The notes under the pieces: generated by a model
What the model was told of the DNA's origin: nothing
What the model saw: the letters and a program-made list of their open reading frames with translations, nothing else
Databases searched by the model: none
Translations under genes and position numbers: made by a program
Assembly (NCBI GenBank): GCA_034670305.1
Contig: JAXMNT010000020.1
Location: 1 to 64,000, forward strand
DNA from: Deltaproteobacteria bacterium
Lineage (GTDB): Bacteria > Myxococcota_A > Polyangia > Polyangiales > Houyiibacteriaceae
Reading direction: 5' to 3'
Length of the DNA: 64,000 nt
In this document: one piece after another, positions 231-47,778 of the stretch
Numbering within the stretch: position 1 is the first letter of the stretch
How the letters are laid out: each line of letters starts with the position of its first letter

Positions 231-301
231 CTTGGGGGCACGGCCCCCAAACCCCGTCCCGATGACACGGCTGGCTCGCTTCGCTCGGCTGCACCGTGTC
301 G
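231..301 (-). repeat. Dispersed copy of the ~75-bp hairpin element (reverse orientation, diverged)
   Basis: cttgggggcacggcccccaaaccccgtcccgatgacacggctggctcgcttcgctcggctgcaccgtgtcg matches the reverse complement of the units at 45085-45237. Confidence 0.9.
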
Positions 302-11646: not shown

Positions 11647-11730
11647 TGAGCCCGCACTCTAGTCCCGCAAACAACCTCCCGACACCCCCATTCGGGGAAT
11701 GCCAGGGGATCCCCCGCGTTCGCACCGATT

Positions 11731-11788
11731 GCACGGCCCCCGACCCCGTCCCGGTGAAGCCCTGGCGGCCCCTCCCCGCGTCGAATAT
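11731..11788 (-). repeat. Degenerate, internally altered copy of the ~75-bp element
   Basis: gcacggcccccgaccccgtcccggtga…ccgcgtcgaatat keeps part of the hairpin region and the ATAT-bounded end. Confidence 0.7.
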
Positions 11789-11800
11789 TTCTTCCCGGCC

Positions 11801-11926
11801 TGCGGCTCTGCGGCTCCCTTGCCAGCGCCAAAGGCGCGATGCCCTTGCCCCTGCCCTTGCCCTTGGTGCGGTCCTGCAGCTCTGCGGTTCTGCAGCTCTG
11901 CGGTCCTGCAGCTCCCTTGCCAGCGC
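11801..11926. repeat. Composite simple-repeat block: 16-bp direct repeat enclosing GCCCTT and 8-mer tracts
   Basis: gctcccttgccagcgc at 11813-11828 and 11911-11926; gcccttgcccctgcccttgcccttg; ctgcagct/ctgcggt 8-mers. Confidence 0.8.
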
Positions 11927-11952
11927 GCCTTTCTGGGAAACGCTCTGGGCCC

Positions 11953-12021
11953 CGGCGAAGCCGAGCGAAGCGAGCAAGCCGTGTCACGGACGGGGTTTGG
12001 GGGCCGTGCCCCCAGCAATAT
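11953..12021 (+). repeat. Near-perfect copy of the ~75-bp element ending in ATAT at the stop codon of the adjacent gene
   Basis: cggcgaagccgagcgaagcgagcaagccgtgtcacggacggggtttgggggccgtgcccccagcaatat. Confidence 0.92.
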
Positions 12022-42768: not shown

Positions 42769-44841
42769 GTGAGTCGGGGGATTCGTTGGTTGGGGCTTCG
42801 CGTGCTGTGTGGCGCGCTCGCATTCGGATCCGCCAGCTGCGGCGACGACGGCCTCGAACTCTTCGTCGACCTCAAGACCGACTTGGTGCCCGACGTGGAG
42901 TTCGTCGATGTGCAGGTGCTCCTGCTCGGCGAAGGGGCGTTCGTCGAGACCCCAGCCCTCGGCGGCTTTCCCTTCGACGAAGGCCAGCGGGTCGCGGAGT
43001 TCGATGGGCTCGGCGCCAACCCGACGCGCGGCGTGCGGGTGGTGCTGCTCGACGCCGAACGGCGGACCGTCGCCGAACGCGAGATCGTCGTGCAGCACAC
43101 CGCGAGTCGAAGCGTGACGTTGCTCGTCACCCGCGACTGCCGCGACGTCACCTGTCCTGAGGGTGACACCTGCTACGGCGGACGCTGCGTCGATCCGGGG
43201 TGCGTGACCGGCAACGAGCCGGAGTGTCCGGAGCCCGAGTGCGAGCGCAACCTCGACTGTCCCAACATGGACGCGTGTGCGATCGCCCGCTGCGAGTCCT
43301 CGGTCTGCGTCTACGTGTCGGGCGGCCTGTGCGCCCCAACCGAGTACTGCGACCCCGGCCTCGGCTGCACGGCGCTGCCCGATCCCGTTGACGCCGGTCC
43401 CCGAGACGCGGGCGCCGACGCACCCTCGGCTTTGCCGGCGCCTCAGCCCTTCGCTCCACCAAACGGACACCCGACCGGCAGCGTGCACGCACCAGCGGCG
43501 GATGTTCGCCAGCTCACGCTGCGCTGGGAGCCCGTCGCCGGCGCAGCCATGTACGACGTGGAGATCACCGACGAGTGCGACCCGGGGAGCTACCGCACGT
43601 GTCCGTTCGCCTCACCAAGTTTCGGCGGCGCCATCAGCGCACCTCTCTACATCACCGCGGAGCTCCCCGTCTCGACGACGCCGCCCGTCGGCACCCGATA
43701 CTACTGGCGCGTGCGCGCGTGCCGCGTGTTCGGAGAGGCGGACACCTGCGCGGGCTGGAGCGACGTGCGCTACGTCGACGTCGGCCGACTGACCTACGAC
43801 GTCAACGGCGACGGATACGACGACCTGTTGGCGGGTGGGCGGTACGCGGTGGTCGAGTACCTCGGTGGCCCGGGCGGGCTCGGCGGCCCCCGCGTCTTGG
43901 CCAACCCCGTGCCGGACTCGACCAGTGGCTACGGACGCACCGTGCGGTTCGACGACTTCAACGCGGACGGCTACCGCGACGCATTGGTGGGCGCGCCGTT
44001 CGACCGCGGGTTCGGCGCGGTGATGCTTCACCTCGGCGGACCGACCGGGCTTGGCGCGGCGACCGTGCGACAGAACCCGCCTGCCTCCGAGCTCAACGAC
44101 TTCTTCGGCGACGAACTGTGCAGCGGAGACTTCGACGGAGACGGCTACGCCGACGTGGCGGTGGGATCCTTGAGCGGCACCTGGTGGTACCGCGGCGGCA
44201 CCGCCGTCGAGACCACGGCGCGACTCGTCGAGATGCGTGGATTCGGCGGCGGCTGCGCCGACGCGAACGGCGACGGATACCAGGACCTCCTGGGCGGGCG
44301 GGTCGCGCTCGGTGGACCGGGCGGTCCGGTGCCGAGTGCGGGCACCGTGGGGAACAATGTGCTCGGCGATCTCGATGGGGACGGTCGAGTGGAGATGAGC
44401 GGAACGGGCGATACGAACTCCCGGCTCTACACCCTCGACGGCTCGATGGACGCGACCGACCTCGGCTTCACCGGCGCGGGCATGGGTACGGTGGACCACC
44501 AGGTGGGCGCCGTGCTCGACATGGATGGCGACGGAAGCGGCGACGCGATCCTGGCTTGGCCCGGCCCGAGCGGAGACAGCCAGGGAGACGTGTGGCGGGT
44601 GCCCTTCAGCGGGCTCACCCCGCAACCCGCCGTGGTCCTCAATCCATGCACCGGCGCCTGCCGACAAGGCTGGGCGATCAGCGCCGGCGCCGACTACAAC
44701 GGCGACGGCTTCGGCGACGCGGCGGTCAGCTACCACGTGGCGGAGGGTGTGAGCGTCTACCTCGGCCGGTCCGGTGCGGCCCCCACCGAAGTGCGACTGA
44801 CCAACCCGGGCGGGTTCACGGACTTCGGCACCGCGCTTTAG
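42769..44841 (+). CDS. FG-GAP/VCBS repeat lipoprotein (paralog 2)
   Basis: Same layout; shares GLELFVDLKTDLV, PPNGHPTGSVHAP and GRLTYDVNGDGYDD with paralog 1. Confidence 0.85.
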   Translation: MSRGIRWLGLRVLCGALAFGSASCGDDGLELFVDLKTDLVPDVEFVDVQVLLLGEGAFVETPALGGFPFDEGQRVAEFDGLGANPTRGVRVVLLDAERRTVAEREIVVQHTASRSVTLLVTRDCRDVTCPEGDTCYGGRCVDPGCVTGNEPECPEPECERNLDCPNMDACAIARCESSVCVYVSGGLCAPTEYCDPGLGCTALPDPVDAGPRDAGADAPSALPAPQPFAPPNGHPTGSVHAPAADVRQLTLRWEPVAGAAMYDVEITDECDPGSYRTCPFASPSFGGAISAPLYITAELPVSTTPPVGTRYYWRVRACRVFGEADTCAGWSDVRYVDVGRLTYDVNGDGYDDLLAGGRYAVVEYLGGPGGLGGPRVLANPVPDSTSGYGRTVRFDDFNADGYRDALVGAPFDRGFGAVMLHLGGPTGLGAATVRQNPPASELNDFFGDELCSGDFDGDGYADVAVGSLSGTWWYRGGTAVETTARLVEMRGFGGGCADANGDGYQDLLGGRVALGGPGGPVPSAGTVGNNVLGDLDGDGRVEMSGTGDTNSRLYTLDGSMDATDLGFTGAGMGTVDHQVGAVLDMDGDGSGDAILAWPGPSGDSQGDVWRVPFSGLTPQPAVVLNPCTGACRQGWAISAGADYNGDGFGDAAVSYHVAEGVSVYLGRSGAAPTEVRLTNPGGFTDFGTAL

Positions 44842-44865
44842 CAGGTCGCTGAAAAGCGACCTGCT
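44840..44865. repeat. Perfect 11-bp hairpin with GAAA loop; probable IS end and possible terminator
   Basis: agcaggtcgct-gaaa-agcgacctgct overlapping the TAG stop; followed by a GCCCTT tract 44866-44899. Confidence 0.75.
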
Positions 44866-44987
44866 CCCTTGCCGTTGCCCTTGCCCGTGCCCTTGCCCGC
44901 GTCGTGGACGCCGTGTGTTTCGCGACGGCGAGGCCGCGAATCGGAGCCCGATGCCCAGCGGACGAAGCCGCCGGGCATCGGTCGGTG

Positions 44988-45375
44988 CTACGCGGCGCAG
45001 CTCCGCAGCCGCGCGACGCGTAGGAGGTTGTATGCGGCGCCGGCCAGGTAGGCGGCGAACTGTGTCTTGCGTCTGCCTCGATATTCGACGCGGCGAAGCC
45101 GAGCGAAGCGAGCAAGCCGTGTCACGGACGGGGTTTGGGGGCCGTGCCCCCAAGAATATTCGACGCGGCGAAGCCGAGCGAAGCGAGCAAGCCGTATCAC
45201 CGGGACGGGGTTTGGGGGCTGTGCCCCCAAGAAATATCGCGTGCGCCTGAGTCCCCCGACGCTCTTGAGCCATCCGAAGATCGTCTCGATGCGCATCCGG
45301 ATGCGCTGGCTGATCGCGTAGTCGGCGTGCCATGTCGTACGCCCGTCGATCGCCGAGCGTCGTCTCGCGTGCTCG
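44988..45375 (-). pseudogene. C-terminal remnant of an IS5-like DDE transposase, interrupted in frame by 153 bp
   Basis: RRSAIDGRTTWHADYAISQRIRMRIETIFGWLKSVGGLRRTR[insert]YRGRRK…AAYNLLR; N-terminal part absent. Confidence 0.85.
45081..45237 (+). mobile_element. Two tandem hairpin-rich units (75 and 78 bp) delimited by three ATAT tetramers
   Basis: ATAT at 45081, 45156 and 45234; removing 153 bp restores CGATATCG and the transposase reading RTRYRG. Confidence 0.9.
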
Positions 45376-45479
45376 CGCTTTGAACTGCCGTGTTCGAAGC
45401 GGCGCCGTTCGTTGCCCGGCTCAGCACTGAGGCGCAGCGCCGGGGCTTCGCTCCGCGTGGTTTGAGAGGTGGCTGCGCT
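45376..45479. repeat. Left ~100-bp imperfect inverted repeat of the Y1 transposase unit
   Basis: Reverse complement agcgcagccac…cgctgcgcctc…gccgggcaacgaacggcgccgcttcgaacacggcagttcaaagcg aligns with 46250-46352. Confidence 0.85.
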
Positions 45480-45489
45480 TGAAGGTTGA

Positions 45490-46197
45490 TCAGCGGCGTG
45501 GGCCGGGGACGTCGTCGATGGGGATCCTCCCGCGCTTCCTCCACCCGACCCGTAGTAACCAGGTCCCAGGTCTCGGCATCCTCGGGGCGCAATCGCCCCG
45601 ATCACGCTTTGCAGGATCGTTGGGCGTCGACTTCCATCCGTCGAAGGCGCTCGCGGTGGAGCACGGATCCACCCAGTGCGAGTCGATCTTCTGACGCGGG
45701 CCCGCGTGTTTGCGGGCGTTGTTCAGTACGTAGCGGAGCGCGTGGCGGACCTGGGTCGGGGTCTTCAACGGCTCGACGTGATAGCGGTCCGGAAACACTT
45801 GTCCGCGTCGGCCGACGTGTTTGTTGAGTCGCCTGGCCAGACGAACAAGCAGGCCCTTCATGCCGCGTTGCAGCGCCGTCGTGCCTTTGCACTCGACGAT
45901 GAGATGCACGTGATTGCTTTGAATCGAGAAGTGAACGATGCGCATGCCGTGGCGCTCGGCGGCCTCTTCCAAGACCGCAAAGCAGACCGCCCGGAGGTCG
46001 CGTCGACGCAGGTTCGGCAGGTCCCTCGCGACCTTGATGGTCACGTGCACCGGGTGCCGGTTCTGAATGGCCGGCCTCCGACGATGAGGCACACCTGCGC
46101 GTTCCCCCTTGGGCTTGCGACCCGCGCCAGCCCGACGACCACCCCACTGGCGGCACTGCAGGTCCAACTGTTTGAGTTTCCGAGCACGACGTGCCAT
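45490..46197 (-). CDS. Y1 HUH tyrosine transposase (IS200 TnpA/RAYT-like)
   Basis: HPVHVT, HUH motif SNHVHLIVE, VFPDRYH, catalytic Tyr in LRYVLNNARKH; basic N-terminal WGGRRAGAGRK. Confidence 0.9.
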   Translation of the reverse strand: MARRARKLKQLDLQCRQWGGRRAGAGRKPKGERAGVPHRRRPAIQNRHPVHVTIKVARDLPNLRRRDLRAVCFAVLEEAAERHGMRIVHFSIQSNHVHLIVECKGTTALQRGMKGLLVRLARRLNKHVGRRGQVFPDRYHVEPLKTPTQVRHALRYVLNNARKHAGPRQKIDSHWVDPCSTASAFDGWKSTPNDPAKRDRGDCAPRMPRPGTWLLRVGWRKRGRIPIDDVPGPRR

Positions 46198-46249
46198 TTG
46201 ACTAGGCTAACATATCACATCTCACCCATCATGCAGACCCTTTTTCGCC

Positions 46250-46352
46250 AGCGCAGCCACTTTCTCGGCACCGGTGACGCGGGTCGTACGCTGCGCTTCG
46301 TGCCGCCCGCCGGGCAACGAACGGCGGCCCTCCGAACACGGCAGTTCAAGCG
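46250..46352. repeat. Right ~100-bp imperfect inverted repeat of the Y1 transposase unit
   Basis: agcgcagccac…cgctgcgcttc…gccgggcaacgaacggcggccctccgaacacggcagttcaagcg. Confidence 0.85.
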
Positions 46353-46581
46353 GTGCAGCAGCATGGTGCATCTGCAAAGAAGCCCCACCGGCGCGCCGCG
46401 CCGTCGGCTGTCACCGCGGAGCCGCTGCAAGCCTGAACCCACCCGCCTTCTTAGCTACACCGCGACCTCGGCGTCCTCTGGCCCCGCAGCAGGTGACGCT
46501 CGGGGCGCTGCGTCCGGGGTTGTCCATCGGGGCGTGTCGAATGTCGCTGCACCGCCGAGACGGTGCTTGGCCGGCTCCGCG

Positions 46582-47778
46582 CTACCAGTCGACGGAGTCG
46601 CCCGCTTGGTGCGCGCGCCAGAGCGGGCTCTGGGCCCGCAGCCGATTCACCACTTCGATCGTGACCTCGGCGGCGCGATCGATCTCTGCTTCGGTGGTCG
46701 ACCGGCCGAGCCCGAATCGGATCGATTGGGACGCGCGCTCCGCGTCCATGCCCATCGCCCGCAGCACGTAGCTCGGTTCGATGCTGGCGCTCGTACACGC
46801 CGCGCCGCTCGAGACAGCGAGCTCCTTCGCGAGCTGCAGCTGCAACCCTTCGCCTTCCACGAACCCGAACGCGACGTTGAGGTTGCCTGGGTGTCGGCCT
46901 GCATCGAGCGCGGGTCCGTTCCGCTGGACCTCCGGGAGCGACTGGAGTGACTTCCACAGCCGGGCCCGCAACACTTGCAGACGGCTGGACTCGGCTGGGC
47001 CCTCGGTGCGCTGCAGCTCCGCCGCCGCGCCGAACCCCACGATGCCCGGCACGTTCAGTGTGCCCGAACGATGGCCGCGTTCGTGCCCGCCGCCATCCAT
47101 CTCCGCGATCAGCCGCACCCGCGGTTCGTCGCCGCGCACCCAGAGCGCACCGACGCCCTTGGGGCCGTAAATCTTGTGCGCGTTCAGGCTGACCAGATCC
47201 ACCGGCAGAGCCCGGACATCGAAGGGCACATAACCGAGTCCCTGCGCCGCATCGCAATGCATCCAAGCACCCACCCGGTGCGCGATTGCACCAAGCGTCT
47301 CGATCGGCTGCACGGTGCCGACTTCGTTGTTGGTCAACATGACGCTGACCAGCGCCGTGCGTTCATCGACGACGGCCTCGAGCGCCGCGGGATCCACCCG
47401 CCCCTCGCCGTCGACCGGAAGCCGCGTCACCCGAATGCCTTCGCGCTCGAGCCGGGTCGCCGAGTCCAGCACCGCCTTGTGTTCGGTCGCCTGCACGACC
47501 AAGTGGTCGCGCCCAGATGATCGTCGGTGGTGCAGCACGCCCTTGAGCGCGAGGTTGTCGCTCTCGGTCGCCCCCGAGGTGATCACGATCTCACTGGCGC
47601 GCCCGTTCACGAGCGCCGCGATCTGCGCCCGCCCCGTCGCCACCGCCTCCGACGCCCGGTGCCCAAACGCGTGACCGCGACTCGCCGCGTTCCCGAACAC
47701 CTCGGAGAAATACGGAAGCATGATCTCCAGCACGCGCGGATCGACCGGCGTGGTCGCATGGTGGTCGAGGTAGATCAT
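46582..47778 (-). CDS. iscS: IscS/NifS-type (group I) cysteine desulfurase
   Basis: YLDHHATTP, SGATESDN, AHKIYGPKGVG, RSGTLNVPG, SSGAACTSAS. Confidence 0.9.
   Translation of the reverse strand: MIYLDHHATTPVDPRVLEIMLPYFSEVFGNAASRGHAFGHRASEAVATGRAQIAALVNGRASEIVITSGATESDNLALKGVLHHRRSSGRDHLVVQATEHKAVLDSATRLEREGIRVTRLPVDGEGRVDPAALEAVVDERTALVSVMLTNNEVGTVQPIETLGAIAHRVGAWMHCDAAQGLGYVPFDVRALPVDLVSLNAHKIYGPKGVGALWVRGDEPRVRLIAEMDGGGHERGHRSGTLNVPGIVGFGAAAELQRTEGPAESSRLQVLRARLWKSLQSLPEVQRNGPALDAGRHPGNLNVAFGFVEGEGLQLQLAKELAVSSGAACTSASIEPSYVLRAMGMDAERASQSIRFGLGRSTTEAEIDRAAEVTIEVVNRLRAQSPLWRAHQAGDSVDW

Follow-up and report, generated by a model that had tools for sequence, protein, structure and literature searches.

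The window analyzed here, a 64,000-nucleotide (nt) stretch at the start of contig JAXMNT010000020.1 (assembly GCA_034670305.1, a deltaproteobacterium of the Houyiibacteriaceae), holds two small, hairpin-forming units lying in tandem between copies of the tetramer ATAT, within the remnant of an IS5-family insertion sequence (IS) and next to a gene for a Y1 tyrosine transposase of the HUH type. On the plus strand, positions 45079-45239 read CG-ATAT-(71 nt)-ATAT-(74 nt)-ATAT-CG, to the base the arrangement that an earlier sequence-only reading had described; with one ATAT each, the periods are 75 nt (unit 1) and 78 nt (unit 2). Deleting 153 bp regenerates CGATATCG and joins the minus strand as ...CGA TAT/CGA GGC..., which, read directly, gives the peptide RTRYRG that had been claimed for the restored transposase. 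The two units differ by 2 substitutions and 2 short indels, and every difference that had been listed was found: GTGTCACGG in unit 1 versus GTATCACCGGG in unit 2, a loop of CGT versus TGT, and AAGA versus AAGAA. Each unit has two hairpins unlike each other: on the left CGGC-GAA-GCCG, within TTCGAC...GCGAA, and on the right the perfect 8-bp stem TTGGGGGC-NNN-GCCCCCAA already recognized by the earlier reading. In unit 1, a longer-range stem (P1) pairs GACGCGGC (45087-45094) with GCCGTGTC (45116-45123) and has GAA-capped mini-hairpins inside. The heptamer GCGAAGC starts at 45093, 45103, 45168, and 45178, twice per unit as had been noted; with 44 matches in the window versus 26 expected, it is common here and hence not distinctive of the units. 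Terminal inverted repeats, which the units had been said to lack, are indeed missing when ATAT is excluded but not when it is included, as the termini then read ATATTC...GAATAT.

ATAT is rare in this 68% GC genome: 533 copies were counted in 7.93 Mb versus ~5149 expected from base composition, an approximately ten-fold depletion, and only 8 occur in the window, 5 of which bound such units. Because the tetramer is this rare, the arrangement of units at ATAT is far beyond chance. Unit 1, taken with its ATAT, is 100% identical to distant copies on contigs C55, C22, and C5 of the same assembly, while the closest copy to unit 2 (C13:34173-34250) is identical at 77 of 78 positions. The pair therefore lacks the makeup of a minisatellite or variable-number tandem repeat, in which local copies of one unit lie head-to-tail: its members are of different subtypes, and each has a closer relative elsewhere. 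As units 1 and 2 carry the diagnostic states of different subtypes, two separate insertions, or a conversion, are more likely than a local duplication.

Table 1. Coordinates of the units, their host, and related features (window positions unless another contig is named)
Feature	Position	Strand	Description
ATAT boundary 1	45081..45084		left copy of the putative target tetramer
Unit 1 body	45085..45155	+	71 nt; E1 subtype A1 (CACGGACGG, loop CGT, end AAGA)
Unit 1 long-range stem P1 region	45087..45123	+	
Unit 1 terminal hairpin	45135..45153	+	TTGGGGGC-CGT-GCCCCCAA
ATAT boundary 2	45156..45159		common to units 1 and 2
Unit 2 body	45160..45233	+	74 nt; E1 subtype A2 (CACCGGGACGG, loop TGT, end AAGAA)
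Unit 2 terminal hairpin	45212..45230	+	TTGGGGGC-TGT-GCCCCCAA
ATAT boundary 3	45234..45237		
Host, one end of IS5-family element	44839..45080	-	
Host, continued	45238..45376	-	transposase remnant upstream of the insertion site; DDE_Tnp_1/IS5 match; ends at ~45376
Y1 (HUH tyrosine transposase) element	45376..46502	-	downstream end truncated versus 5 paralogs
Y1 gene	45490-46197	-	Y1_Tnp match; HUH motif HVH; Tyr in RYVLNNARKH
E1 subfamily C unit	231..290	-	CGACACGGTGCA...; no ATAT flanks; inside another repeat
Second ATAT-to-ATAT composite	11785..12021	+	ends in a 5'-truncated A1 unit (11953-12014), then GCA-ATAT
IS5-family pieces at contig ends	C10:1-113, C73:1-128		

The host end beside unit 1 comprises a terminal hairpin (TAGCAGGTCGCTGAAAAGCGACCTGCT), a run of CCCTTG hexamers (44866-44898), and the last transposase codons (...RGRRKTQFAAYLAGAAYNLLRVARL, then a stop); an FG-GAP gene precedes it, before 44839. 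The units interrupt a minus-strand open reading frame (ORF), both ends of which match IS5-family DDE transposases, and at ~45376 the remnant adjoins the Y1 element, with both elements truncated there. The host gene is a dead remnant with the insertion ATAT in its 3' part; since it is truncated, selection does not act on the reading frame at this locus. An empty form of the site, which the sequence-only reading had reconstructed by deletion, was recovered both at paralogous sites and as a contig joining 45080 to 45234. The 21 nt preceding the first ATAT occur 19 times in the genome; at C5:239834 they run on into ATATCGCGTGCG..., the uninterrupted form of that transposase, and two contig ends (C10:77 and C73:92) show the empty form as well, but with ATAC. 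The joined contig, lacking the 153 bp, was present in four runs of one study with word depths of 1308, 667, 839, and 613, versus 29, 16, 18, and 15 for the flanking single-copy contig (41-47x, same runs); word depths of contigs are not copy numbers, and the depth of the joined contig suggests a multi-copy, uninterrupted IS that collapsed in the assembly. The IS5-family element with hairpin-plus-GGGCAA-hexamer ends appears to be high-copy yet unassembled, as only C-terminal fragments of it are in the assembly.

BLAST of the units against the genome returned ~120 loci, and ~75 hairpin-bearing units were counted, in agreement with their earlier description as a small non-autonomous repeat. Among 163 hairpin-like matches, 75 were units of one family, termed E1, to which both window units belong (bodies of 71-74 nt for subtypes A1 and A2) and which divides into subfamilies A (that of the window), B, C, and D. 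Exact ATAT flanked 28 of the 72 complete units on both sides and 14 on one side, so that the predicted sharing of this boundary by copies elsewhere was confirmed; the 30 units with exact ATAT on neither side include subfamily C and decayed forms (ACAT, ATAC). As single strands, the units folded better than shuffled sequences (z-scores of -1.7 to -2.7), and the consensus of 73 distinct units retained the 8-bp long-range stem, the inner GAA-capped stems, and a terminal G5C/GC5 hairpin. In the long stem, one pair was GC in 45 and CG in 24 of the 73 sequences, and a second was CG in 40, TA in 4, and GG in 27; this covariation is between subfamilies and hence represents few independent events. An Rfam search of positions 44000-47000 gave no match at E values up to 1, and a loose left-end pattern search for a long autonomous form of E1 gave mostly noise and nothing usable. 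Elsewhere in the window, positions 11727-12021 hold a decayed, inverted E1-like stretch up to an ATAT (11785), short tandem repeats, a truncated A1 unit, and a second ATAT (12018), which together look like an old, eroded array.

Three further families shared the boundary. At spacings of 12-260 nt, the genome contains 95 ATAT pairs, with peaks at 75-79 (30 pairs), 102-104 (9), and 129-134 nt (15). The additional families were (i) E0, a 25-nt palindrome (TTCTTGGGGGCACAGCCCCCAAGAA) that is essentially the terminal hairpin alone, (ii) E2, of 98-128 nt with inverted ends of ~13 bp (TTG(CTG)GTCTCTCGCG), and (iii) E3, of 187 nt and seen twice. All four read ATAT-T...A-ATAT and have in common only the boundaries and, in part, the terminal hairpin; three families with unrelated interiors, and a fourth sharing the hairpin, have the same ATAT boundary. 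A strict classifier recovered 59 elements (24 E2, 16 E1B, 14 E1A, and 5 E0) that form 45 arrays and occupy 104 of the 533 genomic ATATs, or about a fifth. Twelve of the arrays hold 2 or 3 elements, and 9 of these 12 mix families. Together with the different subtypes of the window units, these heterogeneous arrays support the proposal of the sequence-only reading that arrays are built by repeated insertion into a regenerated ATAT. Within arrays, E1 neighbors are mostly head-to-tail, and elements of the same family lie in opposite orientations inside one array at C1:256704 and at C23:79624. Repeated families accounted for 265 of 1060 ATAT flanks, and 18 arrays had neither a four-helix-bundle nor a transposase context on either flank, although several of them adjoin other elements.

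Many arrays are housed in a mosaic repeat, in which an antisense transposase tail is joined at one ATAT to the C-terminal 24 codons of a four-helix-bundle gene (Pfam 23S_rRNA_IVP, matched 47 times across the genome). On C17, the junction holds no insert; elsewhere it carries 8 different fillings: E0 (in three length variants), E2, E1B-E1B-E0, E1A, E2-E2-E1B, and E1B-E2. Such variety at a single junction requires repeated events. [quoted passage not shown]

The lengths of both units had suggested that insertions into genes could be tolerated in frame. Multiples of 3 are indeed overrepresented, at 39 of the 59 periods, and the main length classes (75, 78, 102, 129, and 132) are all divisible by 3; the bias is real as a count, but the independent classes are few. 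The sites themselves do not support in-frame tolerance. The host ORF in the window is a truncated IS remnant, as are the other host ORFs examined, and among 18 sites with both head and tail of the four-helix-bundle gene (6 empty and 12 filled), 5 of the filled ones were in frame and open and 7 were out of frame or carried a stop. Insertions into ordinary genes were not seen: where the flanks were non-repeated, the sites inspected lay outside recognizable genes, as read by eye rather than by a Pfam scan. ORFs spanned all 27 restored sites, as expected at 68% GC, and recognizable proteins began downstream of the sites.

We read the units as non-autonomous, ATAT-targeting elements mobilized in trans, with the 153 bp in the window representing two separate insertions into one ATAT, and place the probability of this reading at roughly 0.6. 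Boundaries are shared, paralogous sites are empty or variously filled, arrays are mixed, and the window units are of different subtypes; from these observations we infer an act of transposition, a target duplication, and an enzyme. A trans-acting enzyme would insert elements at ATAT and leave the tetramer on both sides, whether by a 4-bp duplication or, equally, by a 2-bp TA duplication or a blunt insertion between AT and AT, three modes that are indistinguishable because the site is palindromic. Each insertion would make one target into two, later insertions of any family would produce mixed arrays, and precise loss would restore a single ATAT. A filled site is flanked by two ATATs whereas an empty paralog retains a single one, which fits a duplication and fits equally a target ATAT joined by an element-borne ATAT.

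Several results weigh against this reading. The E1 family was not found in 40 relatives (none of the same genus), and the empty sites compared were paralogous. Subfamily C, which lies inside another repeat, lacks flanking ATAT. Variant flanks disagree between left and right except on C23 (ACAT/ACAT), so a true duplication is unproven; taking such flanks as a record of duplication was rejected, since the remaining variants look like decayed ATAT. Arrays with odd junctions (C70) or identical units (C15 and C19) look locally duplicated. Many copies share flanks as parts of the repeated mosaic element and may have been amplified passively, such that independent insertions are fewer than copies; passive amplification inside the mosaic surely inflates copy numbers. 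The tandem, as assembled, sits in ~1.6 kb of repeat DNA that no contig of the four runs spans. As for an enzyme, the genome had no match to DDE_3/IS630 and only 3 C-terminal fragments matching DDE_Tnp_1, no long element with E0 or E2 ends was found in the assembly, and the lack of inverted ends in E1 beyond ATATTC/GAATAT is awkward for a DDE transposase.

The Y1 gene, 256 nt from the units (45237 to 45493), had been put forward as a candidate for moving them. It scores under the NCBIfam cut-off for REP-associated transposases and is one of 11 full-length paralogs (68-100% amino acid identity, in two subgroups, plus fragments), each flanked by long inverted repeats; in the window, a 41-nt core recurs at 45380-45420 and 46309-46349. 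The gene thus lies inside an element of its own, of ~1.1-1.3 kb, whose repeats are unlike the units: a search with a 95-nt flank gave 21 matches, every one of them adjoining a Y1 gene or a Y1 fragment. When the 11 Y1 loci, with 900-nt flanks, were searched by BLAST for the units, 3 loci had them, all outside the conserved element, and A units lie within ~400 nt of 3 of the 11 Y1 genes. Two subgroup-2 Y1 elements have A1 units ~30 nt beyond their left ends (C15:126850-127000 and C55:39091-39169); the units have the same orientation but the intervening 30 nt differ, and the proximity could be chance clustering or a targeting relation. On these comparisons, membership of the adjacent Y1 gene in the putative ATAT system is not supported.

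Other candidates were sought among the repeats and genes of the assembly. Assembled repeats of at least 400 bp are four-helix-bundle elements and Y1 elements, and E2 ends form 32 adjacent pairs, of which 29 are spaced by less than 120 nt and the 3 others, uninspected, by 2.9, 15, and 39 kb. Reverse transcriptases were rejected as mobilizers; there are 3 RVT_1 genes, and the proximity of one to a partial unit on C23 (~600 nt) was judged a coincidence. Because the assembly misses at least one high-depth IS, the mobilizer may itself be unassembled, and the absence of a parent IS is not shown. Tentatively, and at somewhat short of even odds, we lean slightly toward a staggered-cut DDE-type or piggyBac-like enzyme, its gene lying in repeat DNA that was not assembled, over mobilization by an HUH or single-stranded DNA (ssDNA) route, which is possible but rather doubtful.

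Beyond this genome, the 157-nt stretch matched its own genome only among 41 searched, apart from one weak match in G006 (E value of 2.6e-4). The 25-nt hairpin core (GGGGTTTGGGGGCYGTGCCCCCAAG) was more widespread: exact copies stand at 18 loci in unrelated phyla, in genomes of Caulobacterales, Rhodospirillales, Chloroflexota, and Cyanobacteria, and also in 4 viral contigs, and one Chloroflexota genome had 91 near-copies with varied loops, in 40-44-nt tandem arrays. No link between the core and Y1 genes emerged in five other genomes that carry it, as four had no Y1_Tnp match and the fifth had a marginal one; in other phyla, an association of the hairpin with the four-helix-bundle family was rejected, with matches in 1 of 5 genomes. 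A metagenome pattern scan, the pattern of which did not fit the common subtypes, gave one match (L066), to a B-like unit not flanked by ATAT. Among sequencing runs, no RNA run was listed as holding the sequence. As sequence strings, four 15-mers from the hairpin had no match in the literature, and a literature search by term for MITEs in myxobacteria gave nothing related.

If the units were instead PATE- or REP-like, with an HUH Y1 transposase like that of the neighboring gene moving them in folded, single-stranded form, cleavage would fall after ATAT on the left, in the target, and after the terminal ATAT of the element on the right, with no true duplication and with seamless excision. Several observations favor this explanation: an intact-looking gene with HUH and Tyr motifs lies close by and has 11 full paralogs in the genome, A-type units accompany 3 of these (those on C15 and C55 in the same orientation, just outside the element), the units have a conserved fold with co-varying pairs and lack long inverted ends, and loss is precise, as in the empty chimera on C17. 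Set against it are the long inverted repeats that belong to the Y1 genes alone, the dissimilarity of the two end hairpins within a unit, the sharing of ATAT by three families of unrelated interior, the opposite orientations of same-family elements within one array (C1:256704 and C23:79624), and the occurrence of the hairpin core in five other genomes that have, between them, one marginal Y1_Tnp match. Moreover, the point at which the Y1 element adjoins the IS remnant in the window is one where both are truncated. We regard this explanation as unlikely; the A1 proximity at C15 and C55 keeps the HUH idea alive at low odds.

Transposition could also be dispensed with altogether, if the repeats were REP- or minisatellite-like structured motifs (e.g., RNA or DNA hairpins with a host function) whose spread and changes in number came about by recombination, gene conversion, or replication slippage, ATAT being merely part of the repeat period. 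Such processes would account for the identical units or odd junctions in the arrays of C15, C19, C70, and C36, for the ATAT-like junctions of older subfamilies in tandem arrays (ATAC in C70:14420-14648 and ACAC in C56), for the mostly head-to-tail E1 neighbors, and for the many copies carried inside a larger repeat, and similar hairpins do form tandem arrays in a Chloroflexota genome. They would not readily place unrelated families at single shared ATATs in 9 of the 12 multi-element arrays, leave one site both empty and with eight fillings in both orientations, seed the 18 arrays outside four-helix-bundle and transposase contexts (several of which adjoin other elements), or give the window units different subtypes, each with closer relatives elsewhere; we consider this account improbable. 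Less probable still is that the tandem is an assembly artifact, in which two repeat copies were threaded together in an all-repeat stretch. Positions 44839-46502 are entirely repeat DNA (IS end, units, IS remnant, and Y1 element), the stretch is spanned by no contig of the four runs, and all contigs mapped to it read other letters than the window at 45322 and 45332. Comparable arrays, however, occur at 11 other loci, some with non-repeated flanks, the 4 differences between the units help an assembler to separate them, and the silence of Logan contigs, from which rare variants are dropped, is hardly informative. A more novel possibility is an undescribed bacterial insertion-excision system, the only shared signal of which is a palindromic ATAT at the base of a folded GC-rich element. 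We hold this to be a long shot; were it true, one enzyme would handle the unrelated cargo of E0, E1, E2, and E3, in either orientation, stacked, and precisely removed, and the G5C hairpin module would be a widely exchanged recognition or stability module.

Small structured repeats without a known mobilizer, among them CGTC-tagged REPs, bcr repeats, and Correia elements, have long been a loose end of bacterial genomics, and this genome offers an unusually clean case, with a depleted tetramer, about a fifth of whose copies are boundaries, and a site caught empty and with eight fillings. The depletion, the boundary share, and the variously filled site make the boundaries and the empty site exact and open the question of ATAT cutting to direct testing. 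In addition, the IS5-family IS and the four-helix-bundle gene family (47 matches), both mobile elements, are broken up and recombined by the repeats, which goes some way to account for the mosaic of repeats in the genome and for the fragmentation of its assembly.

Comparison with known systems places the elements near several of them. REP and REPIN elements with RAYT transposases are GC-rich hairpin repeats in many copies (PMC3116915, PMC5581495), and RAYT is typically a single-copy gene (PMC5581495). The units resemble them in being GC-rich hairpin repeats in many copies in a genome with a Y1 HUH gene; unlike in REP-RAYT systems, the repeats flanking the Y1 gene here are not the dispersed units, and Y1 is present in 11 full copies. 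A check for REP tags found that both units lack GTAG and CTAC; what follows the left mini-hairpin on the minus strand is CGTC in subfamilies A and D and TGTC in B and C. The window Y1 gene, with its long inverted flanks, fits the description of a TIRYT or TIRtron, a Y1 gene flanked by long inverted repeats (PMC3733652). Transposition of IS608 and ISDra2 goes through circular ssDNA intermediates, with TnpA recognizing subterminal structures (PMC6006769). The elements are like the IS200/IS605 family in having no long inverted ends, subterminal hairpins, a fixed short boundary motif, and seamless loss, and unlike it in that the two end hairpins of a unit differ, unrelated families share the motif, and both orientations occur in one array. 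PATE is the name given to non-autonomous IS200/IS605 derivatives; such derivatives have similar subterminal hairpins at their two ends, bound by one TnpA, and insert 3' of a fixed tetra- or pentanucleotide with no duplication.

MITEs derive from DDE insertion sequences and have terminal inverted repeats and a target-site duplication; Correia elements of Neisseria are MITEs with a TA target. The present elements are MITE-like in being short and non-autonomous with an AT target on both sides, E0 being a perfect palindrome and E2 having inverted ends of ~13 bp; unlike in MITEs, E1 is nearly without inverted ends, and the assembly yielded no parent IS whose ends match. The eukaryotic piggyBac has a TTAA target, a 4-bp duplication, and precise excision, and in these general features, the AT-only palindromic tetramer on both sides and the precise restoration of one copy are similar. 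Rickettsia palindromic elements (RPEs; mentioned in PMC3733652) are structured, in-frame insertions within genes. The likeness lies in structured repeats able to sit in ORFs, with 39 of 59 lengths here being multiples of 3; unlike with RPEs, none was seen here in an ordinary functional gene, and 7 of the 12 filled four-helix-bundle sites break the frame. In the Bacillus cereus group, bcr1-bcr18 comprise several small structured repeat families whose mobility is tied to TTTAT, which is possibly duplicated upon insertion, and whose mechanism is described as unknown (PMC6199540). Compared by description, they are likewise several structured, small interspersed repeat families with a short AT-rich boundary motif; unlike the bcr repeats, the elements here have a palindromic ATAT that is ten-fold depleted in a 68% GC genome, measure 25-190 nt, and often pile up as mixed arrays nested within mobile elements of other kinds. 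By that description, the bcr repeats are the closest described analogue of the ATAT elements.

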